A DNA stretch of 64,000 nt from a plasmid, in NCBI RefSeq assembly GCF_054482525.1, contig NZ_JBTHVG010000007.1. One strand, given 5' to 3'. Of the stretch, positions 62,252 to 63,356 are shown in pieces (position 1 is the first letter of the stretch; each line of letters opens with the position of its first letter). The position numbers and the translations under genes were made by a program. Under the pieces are notes generated by a model, which saw nothing but the letters and a program-made list of their open reading frames with translations, was not told where the DNA came from and made no database searches.

Positions 62252-62641
62252 CTAACCCAGCCTGGCCAGGGGAATATCTCGCCATTTAGTTGTATAACAC
62301 TGACTCAACATTTCCCGTTTCATTTGCCATTCAGGGGCGGTTCCTCGCCCCGCAAACCACACTTTCCCTTTTCCCGACTGGTTCAGTTCATCGAGTGTTT
62401 TCATTAACTTTTCACTGTTTTTACGGGGCTGGATTTCATCAAATAATCCCGGCTGCGCTATACCCGATGGTGTGAAATCAGCCAGCATGACTCCTGCCTT
62501 CATATAGCGGTACCCTTCACGCCAGACATGGTTTAAGGCTCTGCATGCGGCGGCAATAATGTCCCGGCTGTCCTGTGTGGGCAATGAAAGCTTTTCCACA
62601 GCGGCATTGCTGTAACAGGGTTCAGGGGGATGTCCGTACAA
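62252..62641 (-). pseudogene. 3' fragment of a umuC-family (Y-family translesion polymerase) gene
   Basis: C-terminus YRYMKAGVMLADF...GLFDE...VWFAGRG...WQMKREMLSQCYTTKW parallels the UmuC/MucB C-terminal region; the 5' two-thirds is missing. Confidence 0.65.
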
Positions 62642-62643
62642 AT

Positions 62644-63356
62644 GTCGTCACCTGCCGGCAATACTGACGCTCCCCACGTAGTTTCTCTGCGGCCCGCTCT
62701 GCATACTGAACAACAGCCTGGTGCATGGCATCTTTGTCTGTGATTCGTTCACCAAAACTGCGACTATGTCAACGCCACGATGTTTGACCGTTATTTGCCA
62801 TTTTCATGCCCGCTAAATACTTTCGTTACTGATGCTGTCCGCTTTGCACCATTTCATCATCACTGATTGGCGTTGTGTTTTTGGTCAGCACTCCAGCTTT
62901 ACGTTTCTCTTTTAACCGGTAACTCTCTCCTTGTTCTTTTTGACGGACGCATTTTACGTTTGGGCTGGATGTAGTAACGCAGCATGGAACGTCCGCCCGT
63001 ATAACCCATTGCCTTAATCTCCGCGAAGATAACCTCGCTATTCCAGACATTCTCTGCCAGGCGCATGTCGATGTAATCCATAAACGGTTTCAGCTTAACC
63101 ATTTTGTGGCGGGTCTTTCTGGCTGGCGGTTCAGGGTATTTGAGGTAGCGTCTGACCGTCCGTTCAGAGCAACCAATCTGAGCCGCAATATCGACAATGT
63201 ACGCGCCCTGCTGGCGCATTTGCTTTATCATGTAAAAGTCCTCTCTGCTCAGCATGTTGATGTCCTTTCTGGTGTGAGAACCTTAAGGAAACAACATGTT
63301 GGGTGGAGCGGACAATCCAAATGGTGAATTACCGTCTTATATCACTGGCGCTGACA
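62644..63356 (-). mobile_element. internally deleted IS21-family element remnant
   Basis: IstA N-terminal HTH fragment (MLSREDFYMIKQMRQQGAYIVDIAAQIGCSERTVRRYLK) joined to an IstB C-terminal motif (ESYRLKEKRKAG); outer end TGTCAGCGCCAGTGATATAAG at 63356; inner end approximate. Confidence 0.6.

Follow-up and report, generated by a model that had tools for sequence, protein, structure and literature searches.

The window analyzed here, a 64-kb stretch of plasmid DNA, has the content of a ColV-type plasmid: a leading region, sopAB, IS1, iucABCD-iutA, sitABCD, IS1, a scar and RepFIB. The scar (62252-63356) consists of the 3′ stub of a umuC gene, which codes for an error-prone DNA polymerase, abutting an IS21 element that has lost its middle; it is an ordinary one and is already annotated (Table 1). 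Very probably, it is a non-functional rearrangement joint, by which a segment of IncF backbone is linked to the RepFIB replicon in a ColV-type virulence plasmid. Every element that the first-pass annotation had described was found in this interval, far beyond what would be expected by chance.

Table 1. Features at and around the scar, with the evidence used for each assignment.
Feature	Position	Strand	Evidence
IS1	61320-62087	+	Sequence reading and ORF listing of 61000-64000
58-codon ORF	62074-62250	+	ORF listing
parR/stbB-type gene, 3′ remnant (about the last 54 codons)	62088-62250	+	DNA match, tblastn
umuC 3′ fragment	62252-62766	-	Pfam, NCBIfam, tblastn, DNA alignment, PGAP
129-codon ORF	62252-62641	-	DUF4113 and end of IMS_C
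34-codon ORF, other frame	62622-62726	-	Earlier part of IMS_C
IS21 right end: IRR and last 35 istB codons (62826-62933)	62767-62932	-	DNA match, tblastn, PGAP
118-codon ORF	62899-63255	-	N-terminal HTH
IS21 left end: IRL and istA codons 1-110 (62926-63255), including the HTH	62932-63356	-	DNA match, tblastn, profile matches
RepFIB upstream region	63357-64000	+	Match to IS21-free RepFIB plasmids from exactly 63357

The umuC fragment

The 129-aa ORF matched the Pfam families DUF4113 (PF13438, 7e-21) and IMS_C (PF11799, 6e-7), and covered positions 301-422 of the 422 positions of the NCBIfam UmuC model NF002955 (3.4e-62). An additional IMS_C match (PF11799, 1.6e-5) was provided by the 34-aa ORF. 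The first-pass annotation had identified a C-terminal fragment of a Y-family polymerase and had made this identification depend on alignment to that family; the matches to IMS_C, DUF4113 and NF002955 bear it out. The fragment scored 210.7 bits against NF002955, under the curated cut-off of 431 bits, and the intact UmuC of a related locus, present on E. coli A_5 plasmid unnamed4 (L005), scored 795.8 bits.

The extent of the fragment was determined by tblastn with the intact 424-aa plasmid UmuC of L005. Residues 251 to 424 are represented, about 174 codons' worth, with residues 302-424 (99.2% identity) in one frame and residues 251-309 in another. Comparison of positions 62088-62766 with the complete loci of L003 and L005 revealed 97.7% DNA identity and a single gap, an 11-bp deletion between positions 62623 and 62624, which shifts the umuC frame. 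The earlier estimate of about 129 codons thus correctly describes the ORF as umuC but not the length of the fragment, because the frameshifting deletion sets the upstream limit of the ORF. Homology to umuC extends 125 bp past this limit, up to position 62766. Likewise, the stub does directly abut the IS21-like terminus, as had been proposed, but this terminus (TGTCAAC) starts at position 62767 and not at the end of the ORF.

The fragment comprises the C-terminal part of the little finger, a clamp-type motif (QPGLF) and DUF4113. The catalytic core of UmuC (palm, fingers and thumb; approximately residues 1-240) was detected by tblastn neither in the window nor in the complete sister plasmid pEND_Eco19057-2, a ColV plasmid that is 99.97% identical to the window over 26 kb. 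Indeed, no tblastn match was obtained for residues 1-250 in either sequence. UmuD, DinI and ParM were without tblastn matches in the 64-kb window, and these three proteins and the UmuC N-terminus were also missing from pEND_Eco19057-2. The umuD-like partner that the first-pass annotation suggested might lie elsewhere on the plasmid is thus found neither in the window nor in its near-identical relative; umuD lies beside umuC in L005, L003 and L007 (pDA33135-139). The fragment belongs to the umuC subfamily (little finger and DUF4113), and L005 carries an intact umuC-umuD-dinI set. The locus makes no polymerase and no transposase, and is carried passively with the RepFIB module.

Several features of the 129-aa ORF could be taken to indicate a retained, expressed protein modulating SOS mutagenesis, for example by titrating the β-clamp or UmuD′. 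The ORF is open, with a Shine-Dalgarno-like AGGTGA located 6 nt before a TTG start codon, and it includes both the QPGLF motif and DUF4113. It is co-oriented with the IS21 remnant, making read-through transcription conceivable, is present as a CDS in some RefSeq records, and is named 'DUF4113 domain-containing protein' in some PGAP runs. However, the start codon was created by the accidental 11-bp deletion, other plasmids harbor different truncations of umuC (e.g. L007), and the near-100% identity of the ORF across more than 1,000 plasmids is a matter of recent common descent, not of demonstrable selection. Such a protein is therefore very improbable. No promoter-like site was found on the minus strand between positions 62000 and 63700. 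It is equally hard to credit that the ORF may act as a read-through decoy damping or redirecting chromosomal Pol V mutagenesis in ExPEC and APEC strains with ColV/IncFIB plasmids; if true, such a role would explain the persistence of the exact stub in some 20% of the complete E. coli genomes.

The IS21 remnant

The IS21 remnant spans 590 bp (62767-63356) and retains both termini. The reference was the 2,131-bp IS21 copy of NZ_CP024229.1 (L004 1795-3925), which encodes IstA (390 aa) and IstB (265 aa). By blastn, positions 62767-62932 correspond to the last 166 to 167 bp of the element (98.8% identity to L004 1795-1961) and positions 62932-63356 to its first 425 bp (99.3% identity to L004 3501-3925). 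Identity to the IS21 copy of pEC012-3 (L011) was 100% for the former segment (L011 2796-2961) and 99.8% for the latter. The comparison with IS21-family references advocated in the first-pass annotation thus placed both arms on the same 2,131-bp element. An origin of the two arms from different IS21-family elements was considered and rejected: megablast had paired the IstB side only with chromosomal 'AAA ATPase' fragments of about 90% identity, and blastn assigned both arms to one IS21 copy.

The terminus at 62767 begins with TGTCAACGCC (longer reading, TGTCAACGCCA). At the opposite end, the terminus ...GCGCTGACA finishes at 63356; on the minus strand, this IRL reads TGTCAGCGCC (longer reading, TGTCAGCGCCA). 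Both termini match those of the 2,131-bp L004 copy exactly and form the repeats TGTCA(A/G)CGCCA. These repeats were read directly, as an internal mismatch breaks the 7-nt seed and the automated repeat search therefore missed them.

The surviving coding sequence, according to tblastn, specifies residues 1-110 of the 390 residues of IstA (frame -2) and residues 231-265 of the 265 residues of IstB (frame -3), in agreement with the proposal that only the N-terminal HTH of IstA and the C-terminal tail of IstB were kept. The two pieces are joined in the DNA, out of frame, at position 62932, where the joint displays a 1-bp microhomology; the lost interior amounts to about 1,541 bp (IstA 111-390 and IstB 1-230). 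The 118-aa ORF matched HTH_23 and transpos_IS21 and aligned with the beginning of the model for IS21-family transposases; the score against NF033546 was 61 bits, below the cut-off of 160. The remnant contains neither an intact istA (HTH and DDE transposase) nor an intact istB (AAA+ helper). The 4-bp sequences next to the remnant differ (ACTA toward umuC, CCTG toward RepFIB), and a target duplication is thus lacking.

Among 5,426 complete E. coli genomes, the 590-bp remnant was present in 1,107, with one copy per record, and the composite consisting of the remnant and its flanks was found, identical, in 1,093 (about 20%). These counts bear on whether the remnant is a non-autonomous, MITE-like mini-IS21 that an intact IS21 could move in trans. 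The element keeps its two terminal repeats, with about 100 bp or more undamaged at either end, and intact copies of IS21 are common in E. coli plasmids. Yet the remnant occurs once per record and nearly always between the same flanks, it has no target duplication, and no additional copy bordered by a 4-bp duplication was seen at another locus. Moreover, IS100 is the sole further member of the IS21 family in the window, and its IstA is merely 33% identical to that of IS21. Mobility of the remnant is thus highly unlikely.

IS100 itself is full-length (35907-37860, minus strand) and encodes an IstA of 340 aa and an IstB of 260 aa, the latter 48% identical to its IS21 counterpart. It is located in the leading region and is bordered by a clean 5-bp duplication (CCGGG) relative to pEND_Eco19057-2, which is devoid of IS100 at this position.

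Flanking regions, relatives and proposed history

The IRL side of the IS21 remnant adjoins the RepFIB upstream region and not the 5′ part of umuC, the flank matching IS21-free RepFIB plasmids from the first base beyond the terminus. A gene for a RepB-family initiator is located about 645 bp downstream, starting just past the end of the window, and is followed by int and mig-14 in identical plasmids. The absence of a target duplication, combined with the RepFIB flank, indicates that the element marks a rearrangement joint rather than a simple insertion.

On the other side of the scar, the remnant of the parR/stbB-type plasmid partitioning/stability gene displayed a 97.7% DNA match to L003 3989-4151, a segment located downstream of parM in that plasmid. 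Residues 75-138 of ParR, but no part of ParM, were matched there by tblastn. The gene has lost its own 5′ part and its parM partner, and is cut by IS1. This insertion sequence, IS1A (768 bp, insA/insB), is annotated by PGAP as 'IS1-like element IS1A family transposase' in identical plasmids and is not flanked by a 9-bp target duplication (GAAGGGATC versus TGCTTTTTC).

A second IS1 copy, 100% identical and inverted (45070-45837, minus strand), brackets with the first a module of about 15.5 kb containing iutA-iucDCBA, an MFS transporter gene, crcB, an eno fragment and sitDCBA, in a composite-transposon-like arrangement. Within this module, iucD is a 425-codon ORF in the window (48550-49827, minus strand; region 48494-49827), and the corresponding 1,334 bp of the near-identical pEND_Eco19057-2 are labeled by PGAP as a 'frameshifted' iucD. 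The aerobactin monooxygenase may be altered at its C-terminus.

Each junction of the scar was found elsewhere with an intact IS21. Plasmid pRHB42-C22_2 (L008) shares with the window both the umuC/IRR junction and the 11-bp deletion, and has an intact IS21, an intact parM-parR pair and a different IRL flank. The internal deletion of IS21 is therefore later than the umuC/IRR junction. Contig pGA_Eco3 (L012) harbors the same IRL/RepFIB junction with a full-length IS21 and a different IRR flank. In this contig, an IS3-family element (1187-2790) is nested 25-28 bp inside the IRR with a 3-bp overlap.

Clean, independent insertions of IS21 flanked by 4-bp duplications were detected in umuC in L007 (5042-7172) and, 86 bp upstream of the RepFIB junction, in L011 (2796-4925). 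Repeated, independent hits of IS21 on umuC and on the region upstream of RepFIB have thus occurred in IncF plasmids. Copies of IS21 apparently act as joints for recombination when mosaic IncF plasmids are assembled.

A synthetic umuC′-IS21-RepFIB query did not retrieve any PLSDB record with an intact IS21 and both junctions; the best matches reached 89% coverage and corresponded to L008 or to another insertion site. Similarly, no simple-insertion ancestor, in which the IRL would be followed by the 5′ part of umuC after a 4-bp duplication, was present at the umuC site of the window among the best matches, and that search returned only the unrelated L007-type insertion, as two-piece matches 269 bp apart.

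The sequence of events put forward in the first-pass annotation, insertion followed by internal deletion, is correct for the relative order of the umuC junction and the deletion, as established by L008, but is insufficient to account for the missing 4-bp duplication and for the RepFIB flank. In its minimal form, this account has a single IS21 enter the umuC gene of a mutagenesis operon and subsequently lose its middle part, with nothing more. In favor of this model are the precise umuC/IRR junction, of which L008 provides the intact-IS21 version, and the preservation of both IS21 termini. As a full account it is nonetheless refuted by the RepFIB upstream DNA that flanks the IRL: there is also no 4-bp target duplication, the 5′ part of umuC was not found to the right of 63356, and neither the window nor its complete sister plasmid contains umuC 5′, umuD or dinI. 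Extra events are required for the 11-bp frameshift and for the truncation by IS1. The RepFIB flank and the lack of a target duplication imply at least one further deletion or recombination associated with IS21.

The history that we propose starts from what was observed directly, i.e. the anatomy of the scar, its junctions, its missing parts and the version of each junction containing an intact IS21. The starting backbone would have been parM-parR / umuC-umuD-dinI. In a first step, an intact 2,131-bp IS21 would have been positioned with its IRR end inside umuC, after codon 250 or thereabouts, and the 11-bp deletion would have arisen in the stub. In a second step, the IRL side would have been joined to the RepFIB upstream region, with loss of the catalytic two-thirds of umuC, umuD and dinI, through homologous recombination with another copy of IS21 located there or through an IS21-adjacent deletion. 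An illegitimate deletion involving the 1-bp microhomology would then have removed about 1,541 bp from IS21. Separately, IS1 would have eliminated parM and the 5′ part of parR, and the sit/aerobactin module would have been brought alongside. This four-step scheme is the most economical that we can derive from the sequence comparisons; we infer the succession of events and the kind of recombination, and the immediate ancestor was not observed in PLSDB.

A possible, if doubtful, variant merges the second and third steps into one. Two IS21 copies in the same orientation, one in umuC and one upstream of RepFIB, on one plasmid or in a cointegrate, would have been fused by a single deletion with endpoints at bp 166 in the first copy and bp 1707 in the second. 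The 1-bp microhomology at the joint is consistent with this variant, as are the existence of each junction separately with a full-length IS21 (L008 and L012) and the lack of a record combining an intact IS21 with both junctions. However, homologous recombination between the two IS21 copies followed by an internal deletion would generate the same product, L008 and L012 could be secondary recombinants, and the arms contain too few SNPs to assign them to different parental copies.

Distribution, annotation and comparison with known systems

A 2-kb region including the scar is 100% identical in more than 1,000 PLSDB plasmids, including p1658/97, ColV-type plasmids of APEC and ExPEC strains, and a plasmid of the E. 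coli type strain. In identical plasmids, PGAP calls three pseudogenes at the scar, designated 'DinB/UmuC family translesion DNA polymerase, frameshifted, missing N-terminus', 'AAA family ATPase, missing N-terminus' and 'hypothetical protein, missing C-terminus'. The scar is thus already known and, as a dead remnant, is biologically of little weight. For the near-identical plasmid, PGAP also flags a frameshift in psiA, whose product is the plasmid SOS inhibition protein A; the gene occupies 39007-39769 (minus strand) in the window, where the ORF comprises 239 codons (39050-39769).

Among the papers covered by the literature search, none combined umuC, IS21 and RepFIB. In pAPEC-1, RepFIB has been located between sitABCD and etsABC, and a truncated par gene is fused to IS1 (PMC2626276). 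UmuC, DUF4113 and IS21-transposase 'genes' were given as markers of pUTI89 in a study of ST95 (PMC10783064). Counts of 'UmuC', 'DUF4113 protein' or 'IS21 transposase' in pan-genome and GWAS analyses should be treated with caution, as they refer at this locus to pseudogene fragments (PMC10783064). The scar is a precise lineage marker for the RepFIB module common to ColV, ColBM, pUTI89 and p1658/97-type plasmids, the diagnostic marks being the junctions 62766/62767 and 63356/63357, the deletion joint at 62932 and the 11-bp deletion.

In comparison to the L004 copy of IS21, the remnant retains 591 of the 2,131 bp at 98.8-99.3% identity, with equal terminal repeats, but differs by the absence of about 1,541 bp of interior sequence, by the lack of a target duplication and by its non-autonomous nature. 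The closest intact relative of the umuC fragment is the umuDC operon of IncF/IncI-type plasmids, represented by L005, in which the order is parM-parR / umuC-umuD-dinI with umuC convergent to parR. The window shares with this operon the convergent orientation, the position of the umuC stop codon and the 99.2%-identical 123 C-terminal residues. In contrast to L005, it keeps only residues 251-424, frameshifted, and is devoid of the catalytic domain, umuD and dinI.

The insertion sequence, its target gene and the plasmid backbone are the same in L007, an ST131-type IncF plasmid, as in the window. The L007 insertion differs by its site, equivalent to positions 62504-62507 of the window and thus about 260 bp away, by the intact state of IS21, and by the presence of the 5′ part of umuC, umuD and dinI. 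In published IncFIB plasmids, the scar has IS1/sitABCD (or other left flanks) on one side and RepFIB-int-mig14 on the other. It is 100% identical over 2 kb in p1658/97 (NC_004998), pUTI89-type plasmids, pAPEC-1 and pEND_Eco19057-2, and the copy present in the window is materially no different from these.
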